A stretch of 55,089 bases of DNA from a bacterium (GTDB taxonomy: Bacteria > Patescibacteriota > Patescibacteriia > JBAXGH01). The translations under genes and the position numbers were made by a program. The stretch covers positions 1 to 55,089 of the forward strand of contig JBAXGH010000006.1 of the NCBI GenBank assembly GCA_037139515.1, read 5' to 3'. The notes under the pieces are model-generated. The model was not told the origin of the DNA, ran no database searches, and worked only from the letters and a program-made list of their open reading frames with translations. Positions 82-25,406 of the stretch are shown here, piece after piece. The first letter of the stretch is position 1, and each line of letters begins with the position of its first letter.

Positions 82-1011
82 CTACTGGCCCTTACGATCA
101 AGAATCGCATATCCATCCATGATCGCATCACAGAGGAAATCTTCTAGCTGACTCGAATCGTTTTTTACCTGAGCTTTATTGAGGTAGGTGTAATACAAGC
201 GCTTTCGCTGCTCTCGAATTATGGCTGGCGCAGAATTCGCCTGAAGCAACATCGCGCTCATGATCAAGCGACCTACGCGACCATTACCGTCGGAAAACGG
301 ATGGATTTGTTCAAAGCGGCTATGAACCTCCGCCGAAAGCGCAATAATGTCGTTTGATTTTTTCGCTGCTCGAGCCATGACTTCGGGCATCAACTTCGGC
401 ACGCTTAAATAATTCGCCATTGGTAAGTTAACGCCGACGATTCTAACGGCGTGATCACGATACGAACCAGCATCGGGCCGGATTCCGTTCATAAGGATTC
501 CGTGCAACTTAAGCGCTAGATCTTCGTCTAATTTACCTTTCTTAGCAACATAGTCAAACAAGAAATTTAGTGCGGTCTGATGATTTTTAGCCTCCATCTG
601 CTCGGATAAACTTTTATTCGGCAGGGCTGCGTTATCGAAAAGAATGGCCGCTGTATCCGGTTCGGTGAGCGTGCTGCCCTCGATGCTATTGCTGTGATAA
701 GTGAGTTTTAGAATGAACTCGTCGCGGATATCCGGATTTTCAAGAATTTCCTTAATCACGCTCTTATGCGCTTTTGATTTCAGTGCCAGTGCCTGTTTTT
801 TGGCGGTGAGTTGATCGGCCGGAATGATCTTCTGACCGGTAACTTCTAGGAATAGTTCATCAATCTTAGTCTGAACCTTCGCGCGCGGCACCGCCTTCTC
901 ATTCCACCAATTATTGAAAGCAACAAAAGACACGCCAAGCCGATCGGCCAGCTTCGTCTGGGTTAAACCCAACATTTTTTGAATAACCTCAAGCTTTTGT
1001 CGAAGAGTCAT
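82..1011 (-). CDS. Fic-domain protein with N-terminal XRE HTH
   Basis: Fic motif HPFSDGNGRVGR, inhibitory-type SNSIEG segment, N-terminal HTH (LTQTKLADRLGVS). Confidence 0.92.
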   Translation of the reverse strand: MTLRQKLEVIQKMLGLTQTKLADRLGVSFVAFNNWWNEKAVPRAKVQTKIDELFLEVTGQKIIPADQLTAKKQALALKSKAHKSVIKEILENPDIRDEFILKLTYHSNSIEGSTLTEPDTAAILFDNAALPNKSLSEQMEAKNHQTALNFLFDYVAKKGKLDEDLALKLHGILMNGIRPDAGSYRDHAVRIVGVNLPMANYLSVPKLMPEVMARAAKKSNDIIALSAEVHSRFEQIHPFSDGNGRVGRLIMSAMLLQANSAPAIIREQRKRLYYTYLNKAQVKNDSSQLEDFLCDAIMDGYAILDRKGQ

Positions 1012-1809: not shown

Positions 1810-4266
1810 TTATTTCACGAACGCAGAATAGACGCGTTTTCTGAGCGAATGGATGAAGCCAAAGAGGCCGCCTGGGTATTTCTCTTGTATTTCGTCCTTC
1901 TTCGCGTTCATTCCAGGCAATACGAATGTTTGAGCCGATAGATTTTCCTCGCCATTGTTCTTGTACTTCTCCATTATCTCTCGAATCGCGCTACCAATCT
2001 CTTTACCGTGCTGATCGATGGTTGAGGCATTCTGCCGCAGGAAGCTCTTCACACGGTCTTCACGGGTCACCAGAGGGGCGTCAAACGCAATATGGGCGAT
2101 GATATCGAACGTATCAACGTCTTCGAGATTATCAATCGATCTTATTAGTGACACGTTTACCTTTTTTGCTTCAAGATCAGTAATGAGTTGCTCGCGCTTA
2201 TCTGGATCGAGCCAAATTTCCAACAGTTCCTCTGACGAATGCACGATGTGCCCGATCTTATCCTTCGAATACTTTCGGTATTCGGCACGCGATAGCTTGA
2301 TCCCATCAAACTCAATCTCAACTTCCTCGTCAATCGTAACGAGGATTCCTTTGATAGTGATCTTCTTTGGCGCTGCTCTCCATGGCTTCAAACGAAACTC
2401 ATACGGAGTTTCCTCCTCGGTGGCATTCGGCTTGAGCCGTTTGCTCAACTTCTTATAGCTCGCGTGTTCAATACTGATACTAACCTTGTCATTCGACGGC
2501 AAACCAAATAGTTTGAACGCGCCGAACTCATCCGTCTTACCAAGCTTCTCCCAACGCCCAAGCTTTGCTCTTACAACCGCACCAAAAACAGGATTCTCAT
2601 TCTTATCTTCAACCACGATGCCCATCACCAATCTATCAAACGGAGCGATTGGTTCATCTGGGGCTTCGGGCGATTCTGGCTTCTTTGTCGGGATGTCCCA
2701 CTCATCGATCAATCGCGTTGCATTTGTGAAATCAATAATCCTGAAGAACCCCTTGCCTTCAAAAAGTCGCGACCCGCGACCGATGATTTGCTTGAAGAGC
2801 ACACGTGAAGCAATAGGGCGCATGAACACGATATTCTCAACGTGCGGAATATCTACTCCTGTTGAAAGTAAATCAACCGTTGTAGCAACCACGGGTGTCA
2901 TTCTTTCTTTATCACGGAAACGAGTTAGATCGTCTTTATCTTCGGACACAATTCGCGTGGCGTAGTCCTCCCTATTAGTGAGCTGATTGAGCTTATCTTT
3001 GACCGCTTGGGCGTGCTCCATGTCCACGCAGAAAATAATGGTTTTTCCAAACGGATTGGTTCTATTCAAAATCTCAACGACTCGTTTAGATAGAAGTTCA
3101 ATTTGTTCAGGGATTGTGATGGCTCGTTCGTATTCTGAAGGTTCATAAAAATCTTTTACGGTTTCTGGTTCTATTTCGTCATCGTAAATCACCTCCTCAG
3201 CGGAAGCCAAACTTAGACCTTCGCGATAAAGATTCGTAGTGAACTTATAGATCTTGTAAGGCACAAGATAGCCATCCTCGATTGCCTGTCCAAGTGAGTA
3301 TTCAAATACTGGCTCGCCGAAATATTCGTAAACATCAATGTTATCTTCACGCTTTGGAGTTGCGGTCATGCCCAAGTGCTGGGCAGAATGAAAATGATCG
3401 AGAACAATCCCCCAATCACCGAAACGCGAACGGTGGCACTCGTCAATTATGATGAGATCAAAAAAATCTGCTGGTATCTGTTTGTAGAATTCATTCGTGA
3501 ATAGTGTCTGGTAAGTAGCAAAATATATGTTGCGGTTCTTATTGAACTCACCTCCTTCAATCTTGTATCGCGCCTCACCAAATGGCTCGAAATCCCTATC
3601 ATGAGCATCGTCACGAAGAATGACACGATCGCACAGGAAAAGTATTCGACTAATTGTTTTTGATTTCACGAGCTTCCAGACAATTTGAAAAGCAGTGAAT
3701 GTTTTTCCTGTTCCCGTTGCCATGGTAAGAAGCGACGCATGCTTTCCAGAAATAATATTTTCAATCGTGTTTTTTATTGCCGTCTCCTGATAAGCGCGTG
3801 GGCGCTTCGCTCCACTCACGTACGGCGGATACATGAGCGCATCAACTTTCTTATTACCTAAATTCTTCCATTCGATATACGCTTGAAGCATTTCTTCTGG
3901 AGAAAGGTATTTTGTCACTTCATCAGTCTTCAGTGTACGGCGATCATGGAGATACGTTGTTTTTCCATTCGATATGTAAGCAAAAGGGACATCAAGGCGC
4001 TTAGCGTATTCCTGCACTTGGCTCATGTACTTCATTGGGTTTTCGTCCTCTGCTTTTGCTTCGAGCACGGCGAGCGTAATATCTCGGTAAATCAAAACGT
4101 AATCCGCGAACTTCGCAGTTGGCAACCGCTTTGCTTCTTCTACTTCTACAAGAAAACGGTCAGCCGTGATCGGATAATTTCGAAGCAGATATTCCTCCTT
4201 CCACCCATCTTCGTGTATTTTTGGGTCTATTTTTTTTACCCTCGTGTCGTCTTCTGAGTATGGCAT
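1810..4266 (-). CDS. hsdR: Type I restriction endonuclease subunit R (EcoEI-like)
   Basis: Nuclease motif ADY...LEAK, Walker A MATGTGKT, DECHR, MTATP, QIIGRGSR. Confidence 0.93.
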   Translation of the reverse strand: MPYSEDDTRVKKIDPKIHEDGWKEEYLLRNYPITADRFLVEVEEAKRLPTAKFADYVLIYRDITLAVLEAKAEDENPMKYMSQVQEYAKRLDVPFAYISNGKTTYLHDRRTLKTDEVTKYLSPEEMLQAYIEWKNLGNKKVDALMYPPYVSGAKRPRAYQETAIKNTIENIISGKHASLLTMATGTGKTFTAFQIVWKLVKSKTISRILFLCDRVILRDDAHDRDFEPFGEARYKIEGGEFNKNRNIYFATYQTLFTNEFYKQIPADFFDLIIIDECHRSRFGDWGIVLDHFHSAQHLGMTATPKREDNIDVYEYFGEPVFEYSLGQAIEDGYLVPYKIYKFTTNLYREGLSLASAEEVIYDDEIEPETVKDFYEPSEYERAITIPEQIELLSKRVVEILNRTNPFGKTIIFCVDMEHAQAVKDKLNQLTNREDYATRIVSEDKDDLTRFRDKERMTPVVATTVDLLSTGVDIPHVENIVFMRPIASRVLFKQIIGRGSRLFEGKGFFRIIDFTNATRLIDEWDIPTKKPESPEAPDEPIAPFDRLVMGIVVEDKNENPVFGAVVRAKLGRWEKLGKTDEFGAFKLFGLPSNDKVSISIEHASYKKLSKRLKPNATEEETPYEFRLKPWRAAPKKITIKGILVTIDEEVEIEFDGIKLSRAEYRKYSKDKIGHIVHSSEELLEIWLDPDKREQLITDLEAKKVNVSLIRSIDNLEDVDTFDIIAHIAFDAPLVTREDRVKSFLRQNASTIDQHGKEIGSAIREIMEKYKNNGEENLSAQTFVLPGMNAKKDEIQEKYPGGLFGFIHSLRKRVYSAFVK

Positions 4267-4267
4267 A

Positions 4268-4810
4268 TTATTTTCTCACACTATCTGTGAGTAGTTTTTT
4301 CAATAACAGGCTAGTCTTCGCCATTATGTTTTGAGCATGCCGCTCTACCGCTTTTTCTTTTGAAGCTAAAATCATCCCCTTACGAGCAATTTCTTTCTGT
4401 TCCTCAATTGGAATGTAGGGCAAATTATAAATAGCAAAGTTTGTTTTATTGATTGCCTTTTTAGCCGCTCCCCTTGCAAGATCAGCCACAACTTTCTCGC
4501 GAATAAAATTGAAATACAGAGAGTAATACATCAAATCTACTGGGAATTTCCCATTGATCCTTGGTGTAAGAATAAAGCACAGATCGCTCGCAATAAACTT
4601 ACCTTTGATGTAATGCGTTCGCCCTAATGAGCCCCCAGCGCCCATCGCAAATACAAGAGCTTCGCAATCATGCGTATACTCGTTATGAGTTTTCCAATCC
4701 TCACTTGCTGTAACAAATGTAAACTCGCCCTCGGTATTCTTTAGGCTCTGGAGTGAGCCTTTTTCTATATCGAAGAGGTCTTTGATTTGAATTTCTTGCG
4801 CATTAGACAT
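4268..4810 (-). CDS. hsdS: Type I R-M specificity subunit, single TRD (half-size, ~180 aa)
   Basis: Lies between hsdM and hsdR; conserved IPIEEQKEIA helix; ATG at 4810 overlaps the end of hsdM. Confidence 0.8.
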   Translation of the reverse strand: MSNAQEIQIKDLFDIEKGSLQSLKNTEGEFTFVTASEDWKTHNEYTHDCEALVFAMGAGGSLGRTHYIKGKFIASDLCFILTPRINGKFPVDLMYYSLYFNFIREKVVADLARGAAKKAINKTNFAIYNLPYIPIEEQKEIARKGMILASKEKAVERHAQNIMAKTSLLLKKLLTDSVRK

Positions 4811-6254
4811 AGATATTTCGTATTTCAGAAATAACCTTCTGAAGCTGATCAATCTCGGAATCAATATCATTCAGAAGTTTTTCTTCGTCTTGCGTGCCGT
4901 AGTCAATTTCGACTCTATTTGGATTTCTAGGAGAGAGGTTGTAACCATTTTTTGCTACTTCATCCACCTTCAATATCCAAGAGTTGGCAGTGATTTTTCT
5001 TTTCACGCATTTCTCATAAATATCTTCGATGTCAGAGTCTTTGATTGTATTCACTCTGGTAAAATCTCCTGCCAATTCACCGAACCATATATCTTTGGTT
5101 GAACCATTTTTATCAAAAAATATCAGGTTTGTTTTCACTCCAGCACCCATCTGTGTAAATACACTATGTGGGAGTGAAATAATACTGTGCACATTGAACT
5201 TCTCGAGAAGCTCTCTGCGGATTCGAGCCATCGCGCCACCCCCAAACATAATCGTTCCTTCAGGCAGAACAACTCCACAGCGTCCACCATTCTTGAGACG
5301 CTTCATGATGTACTGGAGCGCTAGAGCTTCAGTAGCGCCAACTTGAATAGGAAAGTTATTCTGTACCGTCTTCGTTTCTTCGGCACCAAAAGGTGGATTC
5401 GTTAGGACTACGTCCATCTTCCCGTTTTCTGGCATGTTATGGACATCCTCCATGAAGGTATTTGTACGAGTGATATTCGGCACGAGAATATGATGCAGAA
5501 TCAAATTCATGGTTCCGATTAGAAATGGTAGTGGCTTCTTTTCCTGACCATAAAAGGTCTTCGTCTGAAGTGTCCTCCACGTATGCACGTCTTTGGGTGA
5601 TGCCTTGTAAATATGATCAAAACTTTCTACTAAAAAGCCGCCCGATCCCACGAACGGATCAAGTATCGTTTCGCCAATTTTAGGATTCACAATCCTAACC
5701 ATCAGGCGAATGACGGGACGAGGCGTATAAAACTCACCCGACCAGCCACCCTCGCTCCCCATTGCTTGCAGAATCTCTTCATAAACCTGTGAGAGAAGGT
5801 GCGTGTCTTGGAAATGATGTTTCTGAATCTTGTCGAGAACTTCAACAACATCGAGCAAATTATGCGGTGAGCGAATACGATTCCCCGATAGCTCACGAAA
5901 AATCTCTCCAATTTTATCCTTTTCTCGCGTGCCTTTCAGACTCTTGAGGTATGGAAAGAGTTTTTGATTTATGAAAAAGATGAGCTCGTCTTTGTCCTTC
6001 CAGTCTTTCTTTGCCCACGATGACCATTGGTACTCCGCATCAATGACTGGTTTGTATTTTTTCCCCTCTGCCTCTTCGAGCTCCTTGAGTTGACCCTCTA
6101 CGCCTTCAAAAACTCTCAAGAATAGAAGCCACGAGAACTGTTCGATGTAATCTTTTGCGCCAACTCCATCGTCACGACGAAGAATATCGCACACGCGTTT
6201 GATGTCTGACTTTGTGAGGCTATTTAGTTTTGGCTGATCGTCACTCTGCTTCAT
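4803..6254 (-). CDS. hsdM: Type I R-M N6-adenine methyltransferase
   Basis: GEFYTPR, motif I DPFVGSGGFL, motif IV NPPF; start moved to MKQSDD because the longer ORF overlaps the controller gene. Confidence 0.93.
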   Translation of the reverse strand: MKQSDDQPKLNSLTKSDIKRVCDILRRDDGVGAKDYIEQFSWLLFLRVFEGVEGQLKELEEAEGKKYKPVIDAEYQWSSWAKKDWKDKDELIFFINQKLFPYLKSLKGTREKDKIGEIFRELSGNRIRSPHNLLDVVEVLDKIQKHHFQDTHLLSQVYEEILQAMGSEGGWSGEFYTPRPVIRLMVRIVNPKIGETILDPFVGSGGFLVESFDHIYKASPKDVHTWRTLQTKTFYGQEKKPLPFLIGTMNLILHHILVPNITRTNTFMEDVHNMPENGKMDVVLTNPPFGAEETKTVQNNFPIQVGATEALALQYIMKRLKNGGRCGVVLPEGTIMFGGGAMARIRRELLEKFNVHSIISLPHSVFTQMGAGVKTNLIFFDKNGSTKDIWFGELAGDFTRVNTIKDSDIEDIYEKCVKRKITANSWILKVDEVAKNGYNLSPRNPNRVEIDYGTQDEEKLLNDIDSEIDQLQKVISEIRNIYV

Positions 6255-6302
6255 AGTAATAGTAATTTTTCCGAATGCACTTCGGTGCCTCGTGTCAGTG
6301 AT

Positions 6303-6376
6303 GACTATGAGTACCTTTTCGTACGCAAATATAGCACCCTTGATGTGATACTCATAGTCCGTCGCCTTATAGTCAT
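6303..6376. promoter_or_regulatory. C-box-like operators between hsdM and the controller gene
   Basis: GACTATGAGTA (6303-6313) is inverted to TACTCATAGTC (6349-6359); a further CTTATAGTC at 6366-6374; resembles GACT-N3-AGTC C-boxes. Confidence 0.6.
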
Positions 6377-6396
6377 CTCCGCAATACGCTTGTGGA

Positions 6397-6615
6397 GTGA
6401 AAAACGATGAGATTCTCAAAAAATTCGGTAAGCGAGTTAGAGAGCTTCGCTTACAAAAAGGCATCACCTCTCAAATGGCTTTAGCGTATAAAGCTCGTTT
6501 GGATCGCACCTATATCGGAGGTATCGAGCGCGGAGAGCGGAATATCGCTTTGATTAGCATTGAAAAAATCGCCAAAGCTCTCGAAGTGGATTTATCGAAT
6601 CTATTCAAATTTTAG
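6397..6615 (+). CDS. XRE HTH regulator, R-M controller (C protein)-like
   Basis: FGKRVRELR...SQMALA...LDRTYIGGIERGERNI. Confidence 0.85.
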   Translation: MKNDEILKKFGKRVRELRLQKGITSQMALAYKARLDRTYIGGIERGERNIALISIEKIAKALEVDLSNLFKF

Positions 6616-6736
6616 CCATTTCACCCCCACTATTTTTTCCGCTCGTTTTTCGTTGACTTTCTCGCTCGATTGATACAAAGTCCTACAATATTGCAGCTTT
6701 CTCGCTGAATAATCGGCGCGAACTATTACGATTACG

Positions 6737-9004
6737 ATGAGCACTCTATTCGAACGATTTTCATCGAAGGAAAATCTGAAGAGGGCTTATGAGCTTGTTC
6801 AAAATGGACTCGCTCAATCATCCCTCTCGGTAAATCCGATCAACCATCCTTCCATCACTGCCATCAATGCCCTCGGTGACCAGTTTTTTATTGCTCTGGA
6901 AAAACACATTCGTGATGGGAACTATAATCCCGAGAAAGGGTTTTTTGTTTATATTCAGAAGGACAATCTCGGGCTCCGACCCGTCTGCATCCTTTCGATG
7001 GTCGACCACATCGTTTATCAAGCGATGTTCAATCAGGGCATTCTTGGTCTCAAAATTGATGGGCAGCTGTCTGAGACTTGCTATGCGAGCCGCATCAATG
7101 ACAACGTAACAGAAGCGAACTTTTTGAATACGTATTACAAGGGATACGATGCATTCTGCAAGAAGCAAATCAGCCACTTCAAAAAGGGCTACCGATGGAA
7201 AATCGAATTTGATGTTCGACAATATTTCGAAAACATTCCCATCGAGATGCTTATTTCTACGCTCAAAAATGACTTCGGTGTTGATGATGAGCGAATACTC
7301 ACACTTCTAAAGAAACAACTCATCCAATGGGCAGAGTTTGGCGATTTAGCGAAGGGAATCCCCCAAAGCCCTGAAGTGTCCAACGTACTCGGGAACGTCT
7401 TTTTGTCTGCATTGGACGATTACGCCGATGCCAAGATCGGAAACGACGAACTGCATTATTCCCGATACATGGACGACATTGTACTGATGGGGAAAAACAA
7501 ATCCGCCGTTCTGAAAGCAACCGAAAAGATTGTCAGATTTTTGCGTGAAAGAAATCTTTCACTCAATGAGAAAACCAAGCTGGTCGAACTTGAAAATACC
7601 GATGAGATCGAAGCTTCACGTATCACTTCCGATTATGAAAATACTACCCTGGAAATTCCAGAGGATAGTTTTACGCAAATCCAAGAAAAGGTTCCTCGGA
7701 TTATCGCCGCAATTCGAAGCGGTGCGAAGGTGAGCAAGTCTGAGATTGGTGAATTGAAGTACTTCTTGAAGGCTAGCGCTGGCTTCACTCTCCCTCTTGT
7801 GTTGGAGATGATTCAGATTCTATTGCTCGTGCCATCACTTACAGCAGAAATCATCCGTTACGTGGGTGAGGGCAGGAACGTCTTGAGCATCATCGGGGAC
7901 TCGCTTGATCCACTAACCATCGATAACGCACTCTGGAAAGTGTATGTGAGCGATGAAGCCTCTGAATGGCTGAAGTTCTGGATACTCAAACTCTTGGTAT
8001 CGAATAAGGATGTACTGCTCGGCGATTTGCGTGGCGAAATCGAGCGCATCCTCGCATCAAAAGAAGGAACCATTTTCAAAGTGGTTGGATTTTATTATCA
8101 AGCGATTCAAAATGAAAAGATAAGCTTCGAACAAGTGAAGCATGCGGTGGAGGAAAGTGAAACCGATATAGAGAAATCTCTTTATTCGTTTTTTTTCTTA
8201 GATGCGCTACAGGAGACGCGCTTCTCGGTCGCACAGAACTCGATCAACGATTTACTCGATGCTACTTCGCAGGAGTTGAACCTCATCGGGTGTTACTTGT
8301 ACACCAACACCCCAAAAATGACAGGCGAAAATCCTTCAAGCGAATTCTCGTGCCGCATACTCAACAAGCCCATCCAGCCACCACTATCAATCCCTGTTGA
8401 AAAACCAATCGCTCAGGATCTGGGTGCAGTATTTATGGTGCGAGGGGAAAATCTTATCCCCGTCCCATCTCCTGCCGCTCTTCTTGGATTGAGTCGCAAA
8501 AAGAAAACAAAATCTACGATGCCGTTGGAATTTCCAGAACTCGTGCAATGGGAAAAAGTCACAATCAAAATCAAGACAGGTCTTCAGGACGTTGAAATTA
8601 TGTACGACGGCAAACATATCGCATTTACAGATTTCATAGGACTCGGATTCTACTCGGGTACGAAAGACAAGAAGCCAGACCGTCAATGGACTTTCCTCAC
8701 CACACTCTCTGCACTATGTGTGCTAGGTGACAAACAAGCGACCGTACAAAACATGATGGCAAGCGTAGCTAGGCTCACAAAACGCACCATCAGTACCAAT
8801 AACATTCATCAAATGAAAAAGAAGTTAGCGAATGGACTTCGCGCTGCCTTCAAAACCGACGAAGACCCGTTTCATGAACACAAAGAGTATTATGAGCCTA
8901 GGTTCACCCTACTCCCCGAGCCACTATTCAGACACGAGGAATTGAAACCGCTCGGAGGCTATCTCGATGAAAACATGCTTAGTGAAGCAAGCGATGACGA
9001 GTAA
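6737..9004 (+). CDS. Reverse transcriptase (Abi/UG-like) with helical middle region and putative C-terminal HTH-like domain
   Basis: RT motifs LRPVCI, FDVRQYFENI, GIPQS, YSRYMDD within the first ~290 aa, followed by ~460 aa of non-RT sequence. Confidence 0.88.
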   Translation: MSTLFERFSSKENLKRAYELVQNGLAQSSLSVNPINHPSITAINALGDQFFIALEKHIRDGNYNPEKGFFVYIQKDNLGLRPVCILSMVDHIVYQAMFNQGILGLKIDGQLSETCYASRINDNVTEANFLNTYYKGYDAFCKKQISHFKKGYRWKIEFDVRQYFENIPIEMLISTLKNDFGVDDERILTLLKKQLIQWAEFGDLAKGIPQSPEVSNVLGNVFLSALDDYADAKIGNDELHYSRYMDDIVLMGKNKSAVLKATEKIVRFLRERNLSLNEKTKLVELENTDEIEASRITSDYENTTLEIPEDSFTQIQEKVPRIIAAIRSGAKVSKSEIGELKYFLKASAGFTLPLVLEMIQILLLVPSLTAEIIRYVGEGRNVLSIIGDSLDPLTIDNALWKVYVSDEASEWLKFWILKLLVSNKDVLLGDLRGEIERILASKEGTIFKVVGFYYQAIQNEKISFEQVKHAVEESETDIEKSLYSFFFLDALQETRFSVAQNSINDLLDATSQELNLIGCYLYTNTPKMTGENPSSEFSCRILNKPIQPPLSIPVEKPIAQDLGAVFMVRGENLIPVPSPAALLGLSRKKKTKSTMPLEFPELVQWEKVTIKIKTGLQDVEIMYDGKHIAFTDFIGLGFYSGTKDKKPDRQWTFLTTLSALCVLGDKQATVQNMMASVARLTKRTISTNNIHQMKKKLANGLRAAFKTDEDPFHEHKEYYEPRFTLLPEPLFRHEELKPLGGYLDENMLSEASDDE

Positions 9005-9025: not shown

Positions 9026-9056
9026 GGCTCGCTGAAAAATCAGCGGGCTTTTTGTT
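9026..9056 (+). terminator. Intrinsic terminator after the RT gene
   Basis: AAGGCTCGCTGA-AAAA-TCAGCGGGCTT followed by a T tract. Confidence 0.7.
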
Positions 9057-9170
9057 TGGCTCACTATCTGGAACCCCAATACACACGGGCAATGAAGGCG
9101 TTTTGCTGATTTTTCAGCATATAGGTTGAGGGCACTGCGCTCTCAACTTATTCATTACTCGCCTATTTCT

Positions 9171-9458
9171 ATGTCCGATCAAGCGACCGAGTTACCCGAG
9201 GAGCCACGTTATATTCCCCTAGACGACCCCACCAAAGTTTGGAGCTCATACGACCTTGGAGTCGCAGCCGCGCTTCTCTGTGCGGGCTTTGAACTCATGA
9301 CGGTAGATAAAGAACACCAGCAGAAATCACTTTTCATCTTCAAAAAGGGTGACGGTATCGATGAAGTTGCCAATCAATATCTCGCCGATCGGCTGGATGT
9401 AAAAGCGCGAAAGTATTTCGACTGTCTCCGCGCACTCAAGAACGCGCTCTATCGCTAA
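9171..9458 (+). CDS. Small element protein, DUF5659-like
   Basis: DLGVAAALLCAGFEL...FIF...LKNALY pattern recalled from memory; ATG at 9171. Confidence 0.6.
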   Translation: MSDQATELPEEPRYIPLDDPTKVWSSYDLGVAAALLCAGFELMTVDKEHQQKSLFIFKKGDGIDEVANQYLADRLDVKARKYFDCLRALKNALYR

Positions 9459-9460
9459 GC

Positions 9461-9697
9461 GTGACTTTTATGGTTTTACAAGACGACGACATCGCGCGGT
9501 TCCAAGAGCTCTACAAGAGCAACTTTGGAACGGAAATCAGTCGAGAGGATGCCTATGAACAAGGCATCAAGCTCATGCGTTTGATGTCGCTCGTCTACCA
9601 GCCCATGACTCAAGAGCAACACAACAACATTCAAAAACATCGAGAGGAAACTCTCCCCTTACTCGTAGACCGAATTACAAATTATGAATCTCAATGA
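9461..9697 (+). CDS. Small hypothetical element protein
   Basis: Tightly coupled between the DUF5659-like gene and the primase. Confidence 0.65.
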   Translation: MTFMVLQDDDIARFQELYKSNFGTEISREDAYEQGIKLMRLMSLVYQPMTQEQHNNIQKHREETLPLLVDRITNYESQ

Positions 9698-11807
9698 AAT
9701 TACCATCAAAGACTATCTCTCGCAGAAAGGTGTTGAATTCCGAGAAAGTGGCGGCGAGCTGATCGCGCGTTGCATCTTCAGTGGCTGCGATGAAGACAGC
9801 CGAGGACTTGAGGCACATCTCTACTTCAGCGCCACTACGAGTCAGTACGAATGCAAAAAATGCAGCGCTAAGGGCAATCTCAAAACGCTCATGAAACATT
9901 TTGGTGATGATGTCTTCCAGGATAAGCCTCAAGAAAAGAAGGTCGTCATTTTTGACCCTCAGCTTGTTGAAAAATGCCACGCAGCGATGCCACCACAGAT
10001 CCGAGAGTATCTCCACAAGCGCGGACTCACCGATGCCGTCATCAATGACCACAAGCTCGGCTACGGATCGTTCTATCGCAAACCATGGATCACCATCCCC
10101 ATCAAGGACATTTACGGGAACTATGTCTTTTTCAAGCTGCGCCAAGACCCTACGCTTGGAAACGAAAAAATTACCTACCCAAAGGGAATCGAGGCGCAAA
10201 TCTATGATTGGGAAATGCTGGAAAAAACCGATGGCGCCCTCGTAATCTGCGAAGGCGAACTTGATCGATTACTTCTTCTTTCCAAAGGGGTGAAAGCAAT
10301 CACATCCACTCATGGCGCGATGACATTCAAGGAGGCGTGGGCGGAAAAAGCGAAGAAGAAAAAGAGTATCTACGTTTGTTTCGACAATGATGAAACTGGG
10401 CGGAAAGGTTCGGAGCGCGTCGCGAAGATGATTGAGGCTGGAGGCACCACTGAAGTTCGTCTCATCACACTCCCTTCTGAGGTCGGTGATGGTGGCGATG
10501 TTACCAACTACATCATGGAATGCGGTGGCACCGTCGAAGATCTGCTCGGTAAATACGCCAAACCCTACCCTGAACGAGTGGATACCTCCCAATTCAACCC
10601 TCTCACGCCTAACGAACTACTCGAGACACTCGGACTCACTATCAAATATGATGCAGAAAATAAACTCGCAACATTCCTCTGTGAACTTTCCGCGTACACC
10701 GAGAACTCCCAATTCAACATCAGCTACAATGCGCCATCTTCGACGGGCAAGAGTTTTATTCCGACCGAAATTGCCCGCCTCTTTCCGCCCGAGGACGTGA
10801 TGGAGATCGCTTATTGTAGCCCTACCGCGTTCTTCCATGATGCTGGTGAATACAACAAGGAAAAGAACTGCTATCTCGTTGATTTGTCGCACAAGGTGCT
10901 CATCTTTCTCGATCAGCCTCACAATGAGCTCCTCGCCCGTCTGCGCCCGCTCCTCTCTCATGACAAAAAAGAAATCATTTTGAAGATCACCGACAAGTCA
11001 CAAAAGTTTGGACTGAAGACTAAGAACATTCTTTTGCGTGGCTTCCCTGCTGTTATCTTCTGCACCGCTGGGCTCAAGATTGATGAACAAGAGGCAACGC
11101 GCTTTCTTCTTCTCTCCCCCGAAGTGAGTCAGGAAAAAATCCAACAAGGCATCAGCGCGACCATTCGCAAGGAGGCGGACAGCGAAAACTTTGTGAATCA
11201 ACTTGAGGAGAACCCAGACCGCATCCTGCTCAAGGAACGCATCCGCGCGATCAAGCTCGAGAACATCAAAGAGATTAACATCTCCGCCTTTGAAGGCATC
11301 GAAGAACGGTTCTTGAAGGCAAACAAAACGCTCAAACCGCGCCATCAACGCGACATCAAGCGATTACTCGCCATCATCAAATCCCTCGCTCTCCTGAATG
11401 TCTGGTGGCGCGAACGCGACGGTTCCATGATTATCGCTAACGATGACGACATTGAGGCGGCATTCGGACTTTGGGACAAAATCGCTGTCAGCCAAGAACT
11501 GAATTTGCCACCGTATATCTACAACATCTACACCGAAATCATTCTTCCTGCTTGGCACGAAAAGAATGCTCCTCAAGAGATCCTTGCACCCAATGCTGAA
11601 CGACTCGGACTTTTCCGCCAAGAGGTGCTGGATAAGCATTTCAAAGTCTATGGGCGGATGCTCGACACGCACCAACTCCGCCAACAAATCCTGCCTATGC
11701 TGGAAACAGCTGGTCTCATCGTGCAGGAGCAACATCCAGACGACAAACGTAAGATGATGATTTTCCCCTCCTCTCTCTATTCACTTCCAGAAACTGGTGG
11801 AAGCTAG
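9684..11807 (+). CDS. Primase (Zn finger + TOPRIM) fused to P-loop ATPase/helicase
   Basis: C/H/CxxC Zn finger, ICEGELD, CFDND, P-loop APSSTGKS. Confidence 0.88.
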   Translation: MNLNEITIKDYLSQKGVEFRESGGELIARCIFSGCDEDSRGLEAHLYFSATTSQYECKKCSAKGNLKTLMKHFGDDVFQDKPQEKKVVIFDPQLVEKCHAAMPPQIREYLHKRGLTDAVINDHKLGYGSFYRKPWITIPIKDIYGNYVFFKLRQDPTLGNEKITYPKGIEAQIYDWEMLEKTDGALVICEGELDRLLLLSKGVKAITSTHGAMTFKEAWAEKAKKKKSIYVCFDNDETGRKGSERVAKMIEAGGTTEVRLITLPSEVGDGGDVTNYIMECGGTVEDLLGKYAKPYPERVDTSQFNPLTPNELLETLGLTIKYDAENKLATFLCELSAYTENSQFNISYNAPSSTGKSFIPTEIARLFPPEDVMEIAYCSPTAFFHDAGEYNKEKNCYLVDLSHKVLIFLDQPHNELLARLRPLLSHDKKEIILKITDKSQKFGLKTKNILLRGFPAVIFCTAGLKIDEQEATRFLLLSPEVSQEKIQQGISATIRKEADSENFVNQLEENPDRILLKERIRAIKLENIKEINISAFEGIEERFLKANKTLKPRHQRDIKRLLAIIKSLALLNVWWRERDGSMIIANDDDIEAAFGLWDKIAVSQELNLPPYIYNIYTEIILPAWHEKNAPQEILAPNAERLGLFRQEVLDKHFKVYGRMLDTHQLRQQILPMLETAGLIVQEQHPDDKRKMMIFPSSLYSLPETGGS

Positions 11808-11891
11808 GGTGGGGTAAACGACACAGGAAGTAGTGAGGCGAGCCATCCAATATCCGATGCTCACGTTTTCTAATTGATAACCAAACAACCT

Positions 11892-12440
11892 ATGGGCGAC
11901 ATCTCCCAAAAACAACTTGAAGCAAACCGCGAGAATGCAAAGAAAGGCGGTGTAAAATCCGCCGAAGGAAAAGCTGTAAGCCGTTACAATGCCATGAAGC
12001 ACGGGCTCTTGAGTAAAGAAGTTTTACTCCAAGATGAGGATGAGGCGGATCTCGTGTCACTTGGCAAAGAACTACGCTCCGAGCTCTCACCAGCCTCTGA
12101 AATGGAACTCATGCTCGTTGACCGCATCACGGCGAACGTGTGGCGCTTACGGCGTGCTATGCGGATGGAGCGCGAGATGATTGAGGATGACATGAAGCCA
12201 TCGCCTTATTCTGAAATTCAGAAAAATAAAACACTTGGACAGGCAATGAGCTATGACTTCAGTAACTCTGACACCTACGGCAAGCTCATCCGCTACGAGT
12301 CGAGTATTGAACGCGGTATCTACAAGGCTCTCCATGAGCTCCAGCGCCTTCAGGCGATGCGTAACGGTGAGAATGTCCCCCCACTTGTTGCGGTGGACGT
12401 AGCGTGGTCAGGCGACCAATCAGATGGGTTCGTTTCGTAA
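11892..12440 (+). CDS. Conserved hypothetical element protein
   Basis: QLEANRENAKK...GKAVSRYNAMKHGL motif, recalled from mobile-element proteins. Confidence 0.75.
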   Translation: MGDISQKQLEANRENAKKGGVKSAEGKAVSRYNAMKHGLLSKEVLLQDEDEADLVSLGKELRSELSPASEMELMLVDRITANVWRLRRAMRMEREMIEDDMKPSPYSEIQKNKTLGQAMSYDFSNSDTYGKLIRYESSIERGIYKALHELQRLQAMRNGENVPPLVAVDVAWSGDQSDGFVS

Positions 12441-12571
12441 AAGCGGTTGTTTTTTGAAGTGATAATCAAAATATTCAAAACAATCCCAACCAAGCCAATA
12501 AATGGAACTTCTCGAAGGAAACATAACCGTTCAATCCCAAATGATTTCGGTAAAGAAACCGCGAAACAAAT

Positions 12572-13186
12572 ATGGGTCGCCACAGCTATTCTGACAAAAC
12601 CGAAGCAGACCATCTCAAGAAGATTGAAATTAGCTGGCTCAAGAAGCACGGTTTTCTTGAAGACTGGAAGTCAGGAACTATTAGCTGGACGTACAACGTC
12701 ACGGGTGATCAAAGCAGTATTGGGATCGAAGTATCAGCCTTAGCTAACGAGCCCTTCGCCCGACTTCACTATACGCAAACCGAGAACAACGGCGAGCAAC
12801 AAAAATTCGATTACAAGATACCGCTCACTACATCACCCTGCCCGCTTGGTGGTGAACGCTATTGGTTTCTCTGTCCATTCTTTAGGAGCGGTGAATATTG
12901 CGGACAACGGGTTGGCGTTCTCTATAAAAACGGAGATTACTTCGCCTGCCGTCACTGCAACAATCTCACCTACAGTTCAAAAAATGAGAACCGCAAGTAC
13001 AAGATGTTTCCTTTATTCAGCGTTATGACGCTTGAGAAAAAGATCGAGGATCTTCAGGCTAAAATCAAACGCCCTTACTACGCTGGCAAGCCGACAAAGA
13101 AGCAAAGGCGACTTGAAAAACTCTACGATCAGGCGTCCGCGAAATACCGAAAATACCCTTCCAGTCCCCTTGAAATGCTGATATAA
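12572..13186 (+). CDS. Hypothetical protein with putative Zn-binding motifs
   Basis: GGERYWFLCP...C...FACRHC...LTYSS. Confidence 0.75.
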   Translation: MGRHSYSDKTEADHLKKIEISWLKKHGFLEDWKSGTISWTYNVTGDQSSIGIEVSALANEPFARLHYTQTENNGEQQKFDYKIPLTTSPCPLGGERYWFLCPFFRSGEYCGQRVGVLYKNGDYFACRHCNNLTYSSKNENRKYKMFPLFSVMTLEKKIEDLQAKIKRPYYAGKPTKKQRRLEKLYDQASAKYRKYPSSPLEMLI

Positions 13187-13335
13187 TGCTTTTGTTGACC
13201 CGATGCCACCAATCTGTGCGAGGTATTTTTTGTTGAACATGATAGTAGCCCGAAAGGGGCGGTTTGCCGCTATCTGTTCAATCCTCGCGATTGCATGTAT
13301 CGGGTCAACCAGACCGTCCCTCTCGGGCTTTTTGT

Positions 13336-14949
13336 ATGAACAAACCTACCGACAAAATCAAATATTTTCTTTACGCGAGAAAATCATCGGAGAGCGATGA
13401 CCGTCAGGTTCAGTCTATCGATGATCAAATAAATCGCCTCAAGGAGTTCGCAAAAACTCTCAATCTTGATGTGAAAGAAATCATCACCGAGGCTATGTCC
13501 GCAAAGAAGCCGAGCGCGCGACCCATCTTCACCAAGATGATGGAGCGCATACAAAAAGGCGAGGCTCAAGGAATTCTTTGTTGGCAGATCAATCGCCTCA
13601 GTCGCAATCCAGTCGATTCTGGAATGATTAGCTGGATGCTTCAGCAGGGCGTATTGAAGTGCATTCAAACGATAGACCGTCAGTATCTCCCAGATGACAA
13701 TGTGCTCCTTTTCAACGTGGAAAGTGGCACCGCGAACCAATTTGTCATTGATTTACGCAAAAACAGCATGCGTGGCATGGTCGGAAAGGCGGATCGCGGT
13801 TGGTATCCATCTCGTGCTCCACTTGGGTATCTCAACGAAAAGCTCGAACACACCATTTATGAAGATCCAGAGCGCTTTGAGATGGTTCGAAAAATGTGGG
13901 ACATGATGCTGACGGGAAATTTCTCTCCGCCAAAGATCATCGAGATTGCGAATCGGGAGTGGGGCTTCCGAACATCAAAAGGTAAACGCCGTGGTGGCAA
14001 CGAACTCATTCAAAGCGTCATCTATAAAATGTTCGCCAATATTTTTTATACGGGAATGTTTGAATGGTCAGGAAAACTCTATAACGGAAATCACAAGGCA
14101 ATGATTACCATGGAAGAGTTTGATCGCGTGCAGATTCTCTTGGGTAGAAAAGGTAGACCTCGTCCCAAAACACATGCCTTCGCTTACACGGGTCTCATGC
14201 GCTGTGCAGAATGTGGCTCGATGTACACCGCTTGTGAGAAAACTAAAGTAGTGAAGAGCGAGGGGGTGCTAAAAACATACGTTTACTATTCTTGTACCAA
14301 AAAGAAGAAGGACACTAGGTGTACCCAACGCCCCATGACACTCGAAGAACTTGAAGGACAGGTAGATATCGAACTTGAAAGATATACTATCCTCCCCCAA
14401 TTTCAACAGTGGGCTCTTGAGATATTGAATCGCAAGAATGACGAGGAAATAGTAGATCGAACCAAGATATACGAGACGCAACACGCTTCTCTTACGGAAA
14501 CACAGAAAGAGCTCGATAATCTCACCCGCATGCGCTATCGGGAGCTTATTGATGACTCTACATTCATTCAGGAACGCGACATCTTGAAAGAGAAAATCTC
14601 TAAACTCAAAAATAATCTACGAGAAACGGAGAACCGCGCCGAGGTGTGGCTTGAGCTTACTGAGAAAACTTTTCACTTCGCTACCTACGCACGTCATAAA
14701 TTCCAAACAGGAACTCTTGATGAGAAGCGCGAGATCTTCACCGCACTTGGTCAGAACTTTTTGGTAAAAGATAAGAAAGTCAGCATTGATACCAATAAAT
14801 GGTTCCTTCCAATCGAAAAGGCTTATCCAGCACTCGAAGCAGCATTCAATCGGCGGGAACTAAATAAAAACGTTGATAACAAAAGCAGAAGTGAACACAG
14901 GGATTCACTTCTGCTCTTACTGGGTGCCCAACCGGATTCGAACCGGTGA
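13336..14949 (+). CDS. Large serine recombinase (integrase)
   Basis: YARKSS catalytic motif, NRLSRN, APLGY, Zn ribbon (CAEC...C...C), coiled coil; the ORF ends inside tRNA-His. Confidence 0.95.
   Translation: MNKPTDKIKYFLYARKSSESDDRQVQSIDDQINRLKEFAKTLNLDVKEIITEAMSAKKPSARPIFTKMMERIQKGEAQGILCWQINRLSRNPVDSGMISWMLQQGVLKCIQTIDRQYLPDDNVLLFNVESGTANQFVIDLRKNSMRGMVGKADRGWYPSRAPLGYLNEKLEHTIYEDPERFEMVRKMWDMMLTGNFSPPKIIEIANREWGFRTSKGKRRGGNELIQSVIYKMFANIFYTGMFEWSGKLYNGNHKAMITMEEFDRVQILLGRKGRPRPKTHAFAYTGLMRCAECGSMYTACEKTKVVKSEGVLKTYVYYSCTKKKKDTRCTQRPMTLEELEGQVDIELERYTILPQFQQWALEILNRKNDEEIVDRTKIYETQHASLTETQKELDNLTRMRYRELIDDSTFIQERDILKEKISKLKNNLRETENRAEVWLELTEKTFHFATYARHKFQTGTLDEKREIFTALGQNFLVKDKKVSIDTNKWFLPIEKAYPALEAAFNRRELNKNVDNKSRSEHRDSLLLLLGAQPDSNR
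14881..14918 (-). terminator. Element-supplied terminator for tRNA-His, inside the recombinase ORF
   Basis: AGCAGAAGTGAA...TTCACTTCTGCT inverted repeat with a T tract on the minus strand. Confidence 0.7.
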
Positions 14950-14994
14950 AAACAGGACCACAACCTGTTGTGTTACCGCTACACTATGGGCACC
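14923..14994 (-). tRNA. tRNA-His (GTG)
   Basis: G-1 plus GTGCCCA/TGGGCAC acceptor stem, C discriminator, anticodon arm ACAGG-TTGTGGT-CCTGT, T arm ACCGG-TTCGAAT-CCGGT. Confidence 0.97.
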
Positions 14995-15021: not shown

Positions 15022-15813
15022 CTAACTTTGCTTCTTTTGCAATAACTCCGCATTGATTTCCTCATTTTTCAGTTCCCTCTCCCGAACCGCACCGAGTGCA
15101 ATCTCAAACAAAATCCGCATCGTTTTTGCGAGTGTCGGGCTTTCAATCAAAACAGAACACATGTCACCCTCAAAAGTCACCATCGCAATCTTATCACCCA
15201 TGATCATGATATCGGTGCCGAAATCTTTGTAATATTCCGGCAGATGGTATCGCTCCGGTTGAGCCGCGTTCGGCGCAAATTCTCCGGCACACAAACCCTT
15301 CGATACGATTCCGTGCCGCTGCAGTGCGTCCCGAAGAGGCGCTAAATCTTCCGGCTTCAAAACTTTTCGCATCGCATTCAAGTCGGCAATCTCAAGTATC
15401 TCGCCTTTTGTCGCGCCGGATTCGATATCGTGCAAAATCGCGCGCACACCTTCGCGACCGGTGTAAACATGAACCCGCGGACGATTTCCGCCCATCACGC
15501 GTTCCAGTTCTTTGATTTTTAAACTAACTTCTTCGCGCAATTCGTGAAGTTCCTGCTCGCGCCGTGTGAGTAGCCACGCTAATTTTGACGGATGCTCAGC
15601 AATAAAAACGCGACGTCCTTTTTCTTCAAATGAAGAGATCATCGAAATCCCGGTGAGCTTTTCGAGAGCCTCGTAAACCGATTGACGCGACAATCGAGTC
15701 AGCTTGCTAAGCTCAAGAACCGTCGAAGGTCCGCACTTTAAAGCTTCGAAATATACCCTGGATTCGGCATCGGAAAACCCGAGCGAGCCGAGCGTGTCTT
15801 TAATCTCAGTCAT
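15022..15813 (-). CDS. TrmB-family transcriptional regulator
   Basis: LGFSDAESRVY...LSRQSVYEALEKL wHTH followed by the YTGREGV domain. Confidence 0.88.
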   Translation of the reverse strand: MTEIKDTLGSLGFSDAESRVYFEALKCGPSTVLELSKLTRLSRQSVYEALEKLTGISMISSFEEKGRRVFIAEHPSKLAWLLTRREQELHELREEVSLKIKELERVMGGNRPRVHVYTGREGVRAILHDIESGATKGEILEIADLNAMRKVLKPEDLAPLRDALQRHGIVSKGLCAGEFAPNAAQPERYHLPEYYKDFGTDIMIMGDKIAMVTFEGDMCSVLIESPTLAKTMRILFEIALGAVRERELKNEEINAELLQKKQS

Positions 15814-15815
15814 AG

Positions 15816-15981
15816 ATTAAGTCTGTTGCCATTTAAGCTTCTTGATCAAAATGGCAGATTTCGAGCAAAGTCAACGTTAACAAATTTTTTTGTTTAGCCT
15901 TAGCTAAGCTGAAAAATTTTTGACTAGACTTTGCCGAAAGCTGTCTTTTTGAGCTGGAGCTTAAATGGCAACAGACTTAAT
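15816..15981. repeat. 166-bp imperfect palindrome with perfect 24-bp outer arms
   Basis: ATTAAGTCTGTTGCCATTTAAGCT (15816-15839) is the reverse complement of 15958-15981; the interior is also mirror-symmetric. Confidence 0.9.
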
Positions 15982-16536
15982 ACAATCTTATCGAAAGCTT
16001 GCATTTTAAACCAGCCGAGACTATCATCACGGGCGCCGAAGAGTTCTTTTTTGTTCGGCGGAAAGGAAACAATTCCCCATGGATGCGGAAACTCATCAAA
16101 CCCCATCGCCCGGTCCCGGGCCCTGAGGTGAGCTGTGATTACGGGCTAGCCAGAAGGAAGAAAAGCACGATAGGCGCTGAAACGCTTCTTCTTCCCACGG
16201 AACCTTTATTGATGTCCAGAAGAACGAACCTTAGGAAAGTCAGCCGCGGTATATGCGGTCATGACAAAAGGGAGTCGCGTTCTTCGCATCAAAATAGGTA
16301 AGGCCAAGTGCATAGCTAATGAGATTTCCATTTGCCGTAAATACGGTATCAACAAAGGAGCCCCGTACGAACACAAGATTGCGACCAAGTCGCGAAGAAA
16401 CATTCCCCCCGAGCCTGCTTCGCAGCGGACTCCTCTTTTTTTATCAATAATTCAATCAACTAAACCGTCATTGACAATATAGAGCTTTTCCCTTATTCTA
16501 CGCCAGAACTCGCTTTCAGGGTTTTTATTTTTTCAT

Positions 16537-18369
<1,833 letters not shown>

Positions 18370-25043: not shown

Positions 25044-25406
25044 TGGTGGAGGTGGTGGGAATCGAACCCACGTCCGAAAAGGATCTACAGGGTGCATCTT
25101 CGCGCGTAGCTTCATGATCGGCGATGTTCCGCCCTCGGTTCACGAGCAAACCGGCTTGGGTCTTGACCCTCGCGGCGCATCACAATCTGTCTTATTTTCC
25201 CGTAGCTGTGATACCCGGGAAAACCAGCCTCACATTCTGCATCAGTTCACTCGCTTGAGGCGCGCAAGTGGCTGATGCCGGAGTTCATAGTCTCCGGAAC
25301 TGACCCATTCAGGCGGCAGTTTGGGGTTTGCCCGTGATTTACGTGGCCTCGGGCACCACGGCGCGCAGCATCCAGCTTCATCTCTCCGTCGAAACCTGTC
25401 ACCCCC
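25044..25406 (-). ncRNA. ssrA: tmRNA
   Basis: 5' GGGGGTGACAGGTTTCGAC and 3' GACGTGGGTTCGATTCCCACCACCTCCACCA; G3:U70 pair; PK1 (CGTGG/CCACG, TGCCCG/CGGGCA); 363 nt. Confidence 0.96.

Follow-up and report, generated by a model that had tools for sequence, protein, structure and literature searches.

A reverse transcriptase joined to a predicted DNA-binding domain in an exchangeable gene slot of a Patescibacteria integrative element

What is a reverse transcriptase (RT) of a type met in anti-phage systems doing with an additional C-terminal domain, directly upstream of the replication genes of an integrative element? The question is raised by a gene at 6737..9004 (+) of contig JBAXGH010000006.1, in the Patescibacteriota genome assembly GCA_037139515.1 (1.33 Mb, 99.96% complete), of which we analysed the stretch of 55,089 nucleotides here called the window. 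The encoded protein is an RT followed by a helical repeat, a flexible linker and a domain that we call the tail. The tail models as a winged helix, RT bodies and tails have been exchanged repeatedly, and a pair of palindromes behind the gene varies together with the tail. The answer that we favour, at about even chances, is that the protein, with its RT, serves the element as a DNA-binding regulator or in defence, and that its tail sits on the promoter of an operon beginning with a DUF5659 gene.

The gene is an uninterrupted open reading frame (ORF) of 755 amino acids (aa), with an intergenic gap of 121 bp on each side. Its parts are as follows.

6737..9004 (+): whole gene for RT, helical repeat, linker and winged-helix domain (ORF, homologues, structure model)
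6737..7636 (+): RT domain, fingers and palm, aa 1-300 (Pfam RVT_1, invariant columns)
7133-7135 (+): Tyr133, invariant, a candidate priming residue by spacing only (alignment, comparison with DRT4 Tyr125)
7466-7477 (+): catalytic YMDD, aa 244-247 (regular-expression match in the 755-aa protein)
7661..8359 (+): alpha-helical repeat domain, aa 309-541 (AlphaFold helices, Foldseek, PADLOC RT_UG19)
8360..8545 (+): flexible Pro/Leu/Lys linker, aa 542-603 (pLDDT 35-47 over aa 551-590; composition)
8546..8941 (+): C-terminal OmpR/PhoB-like winged-helix domain, aa 604-735 (domain-only model, VIA-align, Foldseek, relatives)
8795-8848 (+): putative recognition helix, aa 687-704 (domain-only structure model)

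A word-index search (8000 candidates scored, E<=1e-3) found 58 homologous proteins, 53 of which are 744-812 aa long and align over at least 99% of the query at 39-57% identity. In an alignment of 34 of the 58, chosen by us, D159, R243, Y244, D246, D247 and the PQ of motif B are invariant, as are many N-terminal positions. Because full-length homologues are conserved and the catalytic residues do not vary, the fusion gene is, on comparison of sequences, genuine, intact and under selection. The full-length AlphaFold model, built on an alignment of homologues (mean pLDDT 80.9), has the four parts that a preliminary description, made from the sequence alone, had proposed: the RT (aa 1-300), thirteen helices between aa 309 and 541, a low-confidence stretch at about 545-600 within the linker (10 Pro, 9 Leu and 6 Lys over aa 542-603), and a compact domain at aa 604-732 with three beta-strands, three helices and a short terminal strand.

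With regard to the body, Pfam finds RVT_1 alone in the full protein (aa 128-283, E 4.8e-16). The best PADLOC model is RT_UG19 at 173.9 bits, a modest score for a model of 562 positions, followed at a margin that is also modest by UG21 (152.5 bits) and then UG32 (119.2 bits). The match pairs aa 5-523 with model positions 3-487; RT_UG19 is also matched by each of the 34 aligned homologues, and the sister RTs score 167-186 bits against it. The RT and repeat alone yield 170.2 of the 173.9 bits, and thus the RT_UG19 model does not include the winged-helix tail. In Foldseek searches of the PDB the RT core matches group II intron RTs, and the RT with its repeat matches DRT4/UG15 (9vdo, 9vdv, 9l9s), AbiK (7r06), Abi-P2 (7r08) and DRT6 (9wy8) over 483-583 alignment columns, at a TM score of 0.37-0.42 normalised to the query; these matches extend through the helical region. 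An RT followed by a helical repeat is the layout given for class 1 UG/Abi enzymes by Mestre et al. 2022 (PMC9226505). The body is thus a class 1 UG/Abi enzyme with UG19 as the closest group, and the preliminary description was right to place it in that architecture.

The likeness to DRT4 includes the spacing of an invariant tyrosine to the catalytic aspartates: Tyr133 sits 113 residues before D246/D247, and Tyr125 of DRT4 sits 115 before D240/D241. Sequence alignment to DRT4 is limited to motifs B-D, and Tyr133 is therefore a candidate equivalent of Tyr125 by spacing and not by alignment. DRT4 is a hexamer in which Tyr125 primes the synthesis of untemplated single-stranded DNA, with phage DNA-binding proteins and deoxynucleoside triphosphate levels as the triggers (PMC12783706).

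Other kinds of RT were considered and set aside. A retron RT is rejected since the motifs NAxxH and VTG are absent from the 755-aa protein (regular-expression search), the NCBIfam retron models are far below their cut-offs and Rfam finds no retron RNA. A group II intron RT or maturase is rejected since TIGR04416 gives 105.5 bits against a cut-off of 300 and there is no intron RNA; in the AlphaFold model the helical repeat stands in place of the maturase domain. Indeed all NCBIfam group II, retron and Drt models are far below cut-off, and the Rfam matches of the whole window at the gathering threshold are a transfer-messenger RNA (tmRNA) and a tRNA, with neither intron nor retron RNA among them. 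The sequence upstream of the RT gene differs between related loci, and the hairpin downstream also occurs behind non-RT genes. An intact YMDD-bearing RT with about 120 bp upstream, lacking retron motifs and intron RNA, had been described from the outset, and this holds. A HEPN domain is also rejected, there being no Rx4-6H motif anywhere in the 755-aa protein, no conserved His in a 54-sequence alignment of the tail, and a beta-sheet in the tail.

The tail, folded alone from the 54-sequence alignment, gives a model with pLDDT 90.6 and pTM 0.79, with an N-terminal beta-sheet, three helices and a C-terminal hairpin. In a VIA-align comparison with 48,161 chains, OmpR/PhoB DNA-binding domains take 25 of the 25 top places (Z 5.5-7.9), among them CadC, BaeR, VanR, ToxR, PhoP and OmpR, with 84-103 residues aligned over the sheet, the three helices and the wing. 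The only coherent Foldseek matches are likewise to the OmpR/PhoB family (best E 0.02, probability 0.99). Because these matches are consistent and cover the whole domain, we assign the tail, despite the middling Z scores, to the OmpR/PhoB-type winged helices, with confidence as far as a modelled fold allows; the preliminary description had guessed at a winged helix-turn-helix (HTH), and the model agrees. Sequence profiles see none of this. There is no Trans_reg_C match in the full protein (Pfam, E<=0.01), and no PADLOC match to the tail alone (E<=1); a profile of the tail alignment run against PDB sequences gave only coiled-coil and designed-repeat noise in the variable N-termini and no match in the domain. 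A fold search with the tail among viral models found nothing (E<=0.001).

The tail is by no means confined to RTs. An exhaustive HMMER search with aa 590-755 (E<=1e-3) gave 228 representative tail-bearing proteins, and in 125 of the 147 examined among the matches listed the tail follows an N-terminus of 80 aa or more with no match to the RT, so that the same domain does recur on other N-termini, a prospect that the preliminary description had raised. These 125 N-termini fall into 66 BLAST clusters. Most carriers are non-RT proteins of 270-340 aa, and Pfam finds nothing above threshold in the 54 non-RT carriers searched. The tail is present in 10 of 401 genomes sampled from the phylum of the window, the source genome included, and in nine genome regions that were fetched there is no RT domain beside it. 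At one locus, L025 (5090-6562; related loci are designated L with a number), the tail-bearing protein has a terminase large subunit in its neighbourhood, pointing to a prophage setting.

The reverse also holds, in that RTs of this kind bear other tails. The tail family of the L008 RT is found also in L060 and L080 (57% identity), that of the L006 RT in L055 (50%), and that of the L070 RT in an ORF of L076 and in L087, L098, L109 and L111 (42-52%), so that three further tail types occur each on RT and on non-RT proteins at 42-57% identity. In a tree of 13 RT cores, those with the winged-helix tail of the window form one clade with support of 97/97. L006, L070 and L076 share 56-62% identity in their RT cores; their tails nevertheless differ, and one of the three is split. 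Since similar RT cores bear different tails and the tails are common to non-RT proteins, the RT-repeat body and the DNA-binding tails are independent cartridges.

The exchange takes place at a fixed position, in front of a core module identified by Pfam, PHROGs and synteny.

9171..14949 (+): core module
9171-9458 (+): DUF5659
9461-9697 (+): orf78
9684-11807 (+): Toprim primase with P-loop domain, 707 aa
11874-12440 (+): orf188
12572-13186 (+): orf204
13264-14949 (+): large serine recombinase

The Toprim part of the primase covers aa 185-281; its long conserved C-terminal part has a Walker A-like 'APSSTGKS' and no Pfam family, and the protein gives a weak PADLOC match (E 8.5e-9) to 'RTasDnaG-like', a DnaG-type primase linked to class 3 UG RTs.

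Relatives of the RT are encoded at nine genome loci, eight of them labelled as Saccharibacteria (4), Patescibacteria (1), Bacteroidota (2) and Pseudomonadota (1). DUF5659 lies directly 3' of the RT in eight of the nine, and the ninth locus ends within the RT. The primase is present in seven of them, 54-75% identical and better conserved than the RT. Primase relatives are encoded on 331 metagenome stretches, and a collection of viral contigs gave one weak match to the primase. We surveyed the best 80 of the 331 primase-bearing loci, in which DUF5659, orf78, primase, orf188, orf204 and large serine recombinase form a very stable module. A DUF5659 match is present in 70 of the 80, and with 27 of these set apart for having less than 2.6 kb upstream there are 43 assessable loci. 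Each of the 43 has a plus-strand ORF of at least 100 aa that ends no more than 700 bp before DUF5659. The content of this slot is as follows.

RT with the same tail as the window: 6 of 43 loci
RT with another tail: 1 of 43 loci
non-RT protein with the same tail as the window: 10 of 43 loci
other: 26 of 43 loci

One of the 'other' loci, L076, has a 111-aa ORF after a 627-aa RT, that is, RT and tail as separate ORFs. Counting L070 and L076, an RT is in the slot in 8 of the 43 assessable elements, about a fifth. Pfam names something above threshold in four of 31 slot proteins, RVT_1 (L070, L076) and TPR repeats (L043, L092), and finds nothing for 23; two of the 31 have weak AbiJ_NTD3 matches. The L043 protein is a TPR repeat on the same tail as that of the window. 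Sub-threshold Trans_reg_C matches in L111 (155 aa, E 5e-5) and the 111-aa ORF of L076 (E 1.8e-3) are to a tail type other than that of the window. The slot is thus always filled, and wherever the tail can be classified it is a predicted DNA-binding tail on a swappable N-terminus, which may be an RT, a TPR repeat, of unknown kind, or none.

The sequence around the slot gene of the window has the following candidate sites and signals.

9031-9044: palindrome site 1, GCTGAAAAATCAGC, top of the hairpin (sequence)
9027..9057 (+): terminator-like hairpin and T-run directly after the RT stop codon (sequence, covariation)
9105..9118: palindrome site 2, GCTGATTTTTCAGC, reverse complement of site 1 (sequence)
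9120-9125 (+): -10-like TATAGG abutting site 2, before the DUF5659 operon (sequence)
6704..6717: copy with one mismatch, GCTGAATAATCGGC, 20-33 nt upstream of the RT start (word scan)

The motif is CTGA-N4-TCAG, in two copies 3' of the RT gene. Allowing one mismatch there are three matches in the window against 0.27 expected, and none of 100 shuffles reaches three; the copy at 6704..6717 is not conserved at related loci. The exact 14-mer occurs at only three places in the 1.3-Mb genome, the third of which lies inside a 758-aa ORF and was set aside as a chance occurrence.

Across 11 loci the hairpin is a helix of nine pairs, of which the upper four (CTGA/TCAG) are invariant and the lower ones keep their pairing by compensatory changes, four pairs being changed on both sides (covariation score 0.42 against 0.185; 0 of 500 shuffles). 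In 25 of 28 tail-bearing loci there are two palindrome copies, one after the stop codon and one at the promoter, 64-85 nt apart and mostly 73-75 nt. The sites fall into three classes.

CTGA-N4/5-TCAG: 14 loci (11 RT, one fragment, 2 TPR)
GCGTGAAATTCGC: 8 loci
GGTGA..TC(A/G)CC: 3 loci

Within a class the tails are 56-73% identical in the two well-sampled classes, and 47% on three GGTGA pairs; between classes they are 25-33% identical. No such separation is seen for DUF5659, orf78 and the primase, whose identities across classes match those inside a class and reach 85%, 96% and 88% respectively. It is thus the tail subfamily, and not the downstream genes, that the half-site follows in these alignments. 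A further group, L008, L060 and L080, has by eye the same layout with ATCCGA..TCGGAT. Since the paired palindromes covary with the tail subfamily, we infer that the tail is a sequence-specific DNA binder. The suggestion of the preliminary description that the protein may be coupled to control of the element gains indirect support from these subfamily-specific pairs beside the neighbouring operon.

Two other features of these spacers were seen. TATAGG is followed directly, at 9125-9147, by a conserved hairpin, GTTGAGGGC...GCTCTCAAC, where the transcript of the DUF5659 operon presumably begins, and similar 'GAGGG...CTCTC' hairpins are present in L001, L004, L037, L042 and L043. The starts of the slot gene and of DUF5659 have a conserved A/T-rich leader, 'AAATTAC-N-ATTAC-N-ATG', instead of a Shine-Dalgarno sequence (window 6722-6739, L001-L008, L028, L029), and this may be the translation-initiation context of these organisms.

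The mechanism that we propose would have the RT-repeat body tethered by the flexible linker to a sequence-specific OmpR/PhoB-like tail, with the tail binding the paired CTGA-N4-TCAG palindromes at 9031-9044 and 9105-9118. With its tail so bound, the protein would sit at the promoter of the DUF5659-primase-recombinase operon. DRT4, AbiK and Abi-P2 serve as the model for the body, which would be an oligomer that answers phage infection and polymerises DNA from a protein primer without a template. The state of the RT body would then be coupled to expression of the element operon, or a defence enzyme would simply be held at the site and regulated from it. The sequences and models show the architecture, the fold, the swapping of modules and the covariation of site and domain; DNA binding, polymerase chemistry, a role in sensing and the direction in which the operon is regulated are presumed in this scheme.

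A bolder version, which we offer tentatively and think rather unlikely, treats the protein as a one-component transcription factor whose input module is the RT. The body would sense phage through a protein-primed DNA product, as by analogy with DRT4, and the tail on its paired operators would switch the replication and excision operon of a satellite-like element in bacteria of the candidate phyla radiation (CPR), with RT, TPR and other sensors being interchangeable on element-specific tails. There are precedents for such an arrangement in regulators of the AimR/Rgg/PlcR types, SARP/AfsR and the SaPI Stl, which have a variable sensor-like N-terminus and a small DNA-binding domain acting on the promoter of an element or regulon. 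The TPR repeat on the same tail in L043 is like these; in none of them is the input module known to be a polymerase.

Several points weigh against a regulator or defence protein held at the palindromes. The fold matches of the tail have Z below 8, a range that VIA-align itself calls common, and the tail has no match in Pfam, PHROGs, PADLOC or NCBIfam models. OmpR-family domains usually bind direct repeats and not palindromes. The palindrome patterns were written after the sequences had been viewed, and a motif-agnostic test for exact repeats, applied to loci with the tail, reaches significance in no more than 6 of 10 with an RT and 3 of 14 without one (for other tails the figure is 0 of 12, and for unclassified loci 1 of 16). 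The slot gene and the spacer downstream of it are inherited together, and linkage could account for some of the covariation. The CTGA half-site is used also by the TPR-type tails of L043 and L045, which are only 28% identical to RT-type tails. Many loci are near-duplicates (L045/L046, L072/L075/L077, L081/L082), so that the counts given above overstate independence. Finally, the neighbouring restriction-modification (R-M) genes and the published prediction of defence for UG19 fit a plain defence gene equally well.

That last account is the best of the alternatives, and we regard it as possible though doubtful. It holds that the gene encodes an ordinary abortive-infection RT of the UG19/DRT4 kind, carried as cargo in a variable region beside R-M genes, with a tail that only autoregulates or aids the effector and plays no part in the life cycle of the element. 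The class 1 UG/Abi relatives considered here are all anti-phage, and UG19 is predicted to be defensive (PMC9226505). The genes left of the slot are variable and include R-M systems or nucleases in the window and in L006-L008, L029, L031 and L032; those of the window that concern us here are the following.

1810..6467 (-): type I restriction-modification cargo, hsdR, hsdS and hsdM, left of the slot gene (Pfam)
6397..6615 (+): Xre-type HTH resembling an R-M controller (C) protein (Pfam HTH_3; PADLOC Control_protein, E 5e-22)

Elements whose replication genes are nearly identical have moreover exchanged the content of the slot, in the manner of a defence hotspot. Against this, a defence cargo sits poorly with a slot that is filled in every assessable locus (43/43) and sometimes by little more than a DNA-binding domain (L111, the ORF of L076). 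None of the eight non-RT slot proteins scanned matches a PADLOC defence model, and where a non-RT N-terminus can be named it consists of TPR repeats, which are interaction modules and not known effector domains. In addition site 2 lies at the promoter of the replication operon and not at that of the RT gene itself.

An improbable account is that the palindromes are not protein sites, site 1 being a plain terminator and site 2 due to chance or an RNA hairpin, and that the tail binds a protein, RNA or phage DNA. Site 1 does lie within a canonical hairpin followed by a T-run, and the generic repeat test is weak beyond the closest relatives. Against this, the upper four pairs of the hairpin are frozen while the lower pairs covary, the palindrome word recurs at a fixed distance in the opposite orientation where there is no T-run, both copies change together between tail subfamilies, and non-RT proteins with the same tail keep the arrangement of sites. 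As this arrangement is found behind non-RT proteins with the same tail, the hairpin is not a template for the RT.

A replication factor, with the tail binding an origin at the paired palindromes and the RT providing protein-primed synthesis together with the adjacent primase, is the least likely of all: the gene heads the replication module, the two sites about 74 bp apart lie beside AT-rich DNA, and VIA-align also gives ORC, Cdc6 and MCM winged helices (Z 5.1-5.5), but these rank below the 25 of OmpR type, the described class 1 enzymes make untemplated DNA, a poor replication primer, and the absence of an RT from the slot in 35 of 43 assessable elements makes the RT non-essential for replication.

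The RT-bearing regulator or defence protein that we favour has relatives among described systems, and it is useful to set these beside it. In PMC9226505, UG19 has a C-terminal domain of unassigned function, either fused ('large') or in a separate gene ('small'), with very distant similarity to HEPN, and is predicted to be a defence system. The gene of the window resembles UG19-large in having an RT, a helical repeat and a fused C-terminal domain, as well as in its best PADLOC model, and the split form has a parallel in the separate RT and tail ORFs of L076. The published domain (UG19-large, cluster 1465) is described as distantly HEPN-like whereas the tail here models as a winged helix with no Rx4-6H; the two may yet be the same domain. 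The published UG19 set is mostly from RefSeq (44 of 52 labels counted); a tblastn search of plasmids for a genuine UG19 reference found only group II intron RTs. The preliminary description had not recognised the fusion. That part has to be qualified, since UG19-large is reported with a fused C-terminal domain (Mestre 2022).

DRT4 (UG15), AbiK, Abi-P2 and DRT6 share the fold of the RT with its helical repeat, and differ in that the titles and abstracts examined mention no DNA-binding tail. A fusion of RT and HTH is described for UG32 (Mestre 2022, PMC9226505), and a cluster in the ESM Atlas of proteins of about 560 aa with RVT_1 and HTH_17 is likewise an RT-HTH fusion. These belong to another RT group (the protein of the window scores 119 bits with UG32) and have another type of HTH, and no element context or operator is described for either. 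The element itself resembles the PLE and PICI-like islands of PMC6002521 in being a small integrative element with a large serine recombinase and its own replication genes, but no packaging or helper-phage genes were identified in the element of the window.

The RT body is thus of a known kind, near the described group UG19. The literature searched did not yield an OmpR-type identity for the tail, its presence on a large number of non-RT proteins, a slot in which RT bodies have recombined time and again with several tails, paired palindromes specific to a tail subfamily, or this family of integrative elements, with no mention of DUF5659. In the current view of defence RTs, odd DNA products trigger toxic effectors. 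Here the same RT body is found repeatedly on predicted promoter-specific DNA-binding tails of at least four types, each of which is also on non-RT slot proteins, and these fusions point to another output, gene regulation or site-specific tethering on a mobile element. If the tail recognises the sites, it hints that RTs of the anti-phage type can be wired into a gene switch. The system is a concrete one, with two 14-bp sites, one protein and one promoter, and the integrative elements to which it belongs form an abundant family in Patescibacteria, apparently undescribed, that carries R-M genes as cargo and has a slot for exchangeable regulators.

With regard to the limits of the element, the right-hand border, or attachment site, is probably a tRNA gene.

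14922-14993 (-): tRNA-His, its 3' end overlapped by the end of the recombinase ORF at 14949 (tRNA search)

The left border was not found, the contig beginning at window position 1, and in the single DNA sequencing run listed with this sequence, probably from the source sample, the contigs are of even depth with no junctions at the element ends; no RNA run was listed. Among related loci, some have the Xre-type HTH gene ahead of the slot gene and others lack it. Adjoining the type I R-M genes is a protein of 309 aa at 82-1011 (-), with an N-terminal HTH, matches to PHROG families 11900 and 5978 (function unassigned) and a faint match to a Doc-like toxin. Elsewhere the cargo left of the slot includes an Hsp70-like protein with an AAA ATPase (L028:1390-7085), secreted SNase/Excalibur nucleases (L029:5056-6039, L032:3993-6110) and, in L032, a C5 methylase.

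The same genome has a second, more distant element on contig 10 (L117:9013-16452). Its RT is UG19-like (156.7 bits), with a frame of 422 aa, an in-frame TAA and then 282 residues that end in a winged-helix-looking tail, and is either a nonsense-interrupted copy or an assembly error. Downstream of it are a DUF5659-like gene, a primase (39-47% identity), orf204 and a serine recombinase (43.5%).

Elsewhere in the window a tmRNA gene at 25044-25406 (-) is found by Rfam with 130 bits and was not called by ARAGORN. At 15342-17342 the summed contig depth in one DNA run is 46-104, against 12-15 elsewhere, with several joints and loose ends, and this is probably a conserved or repeated gene common to other organisms in the sample.

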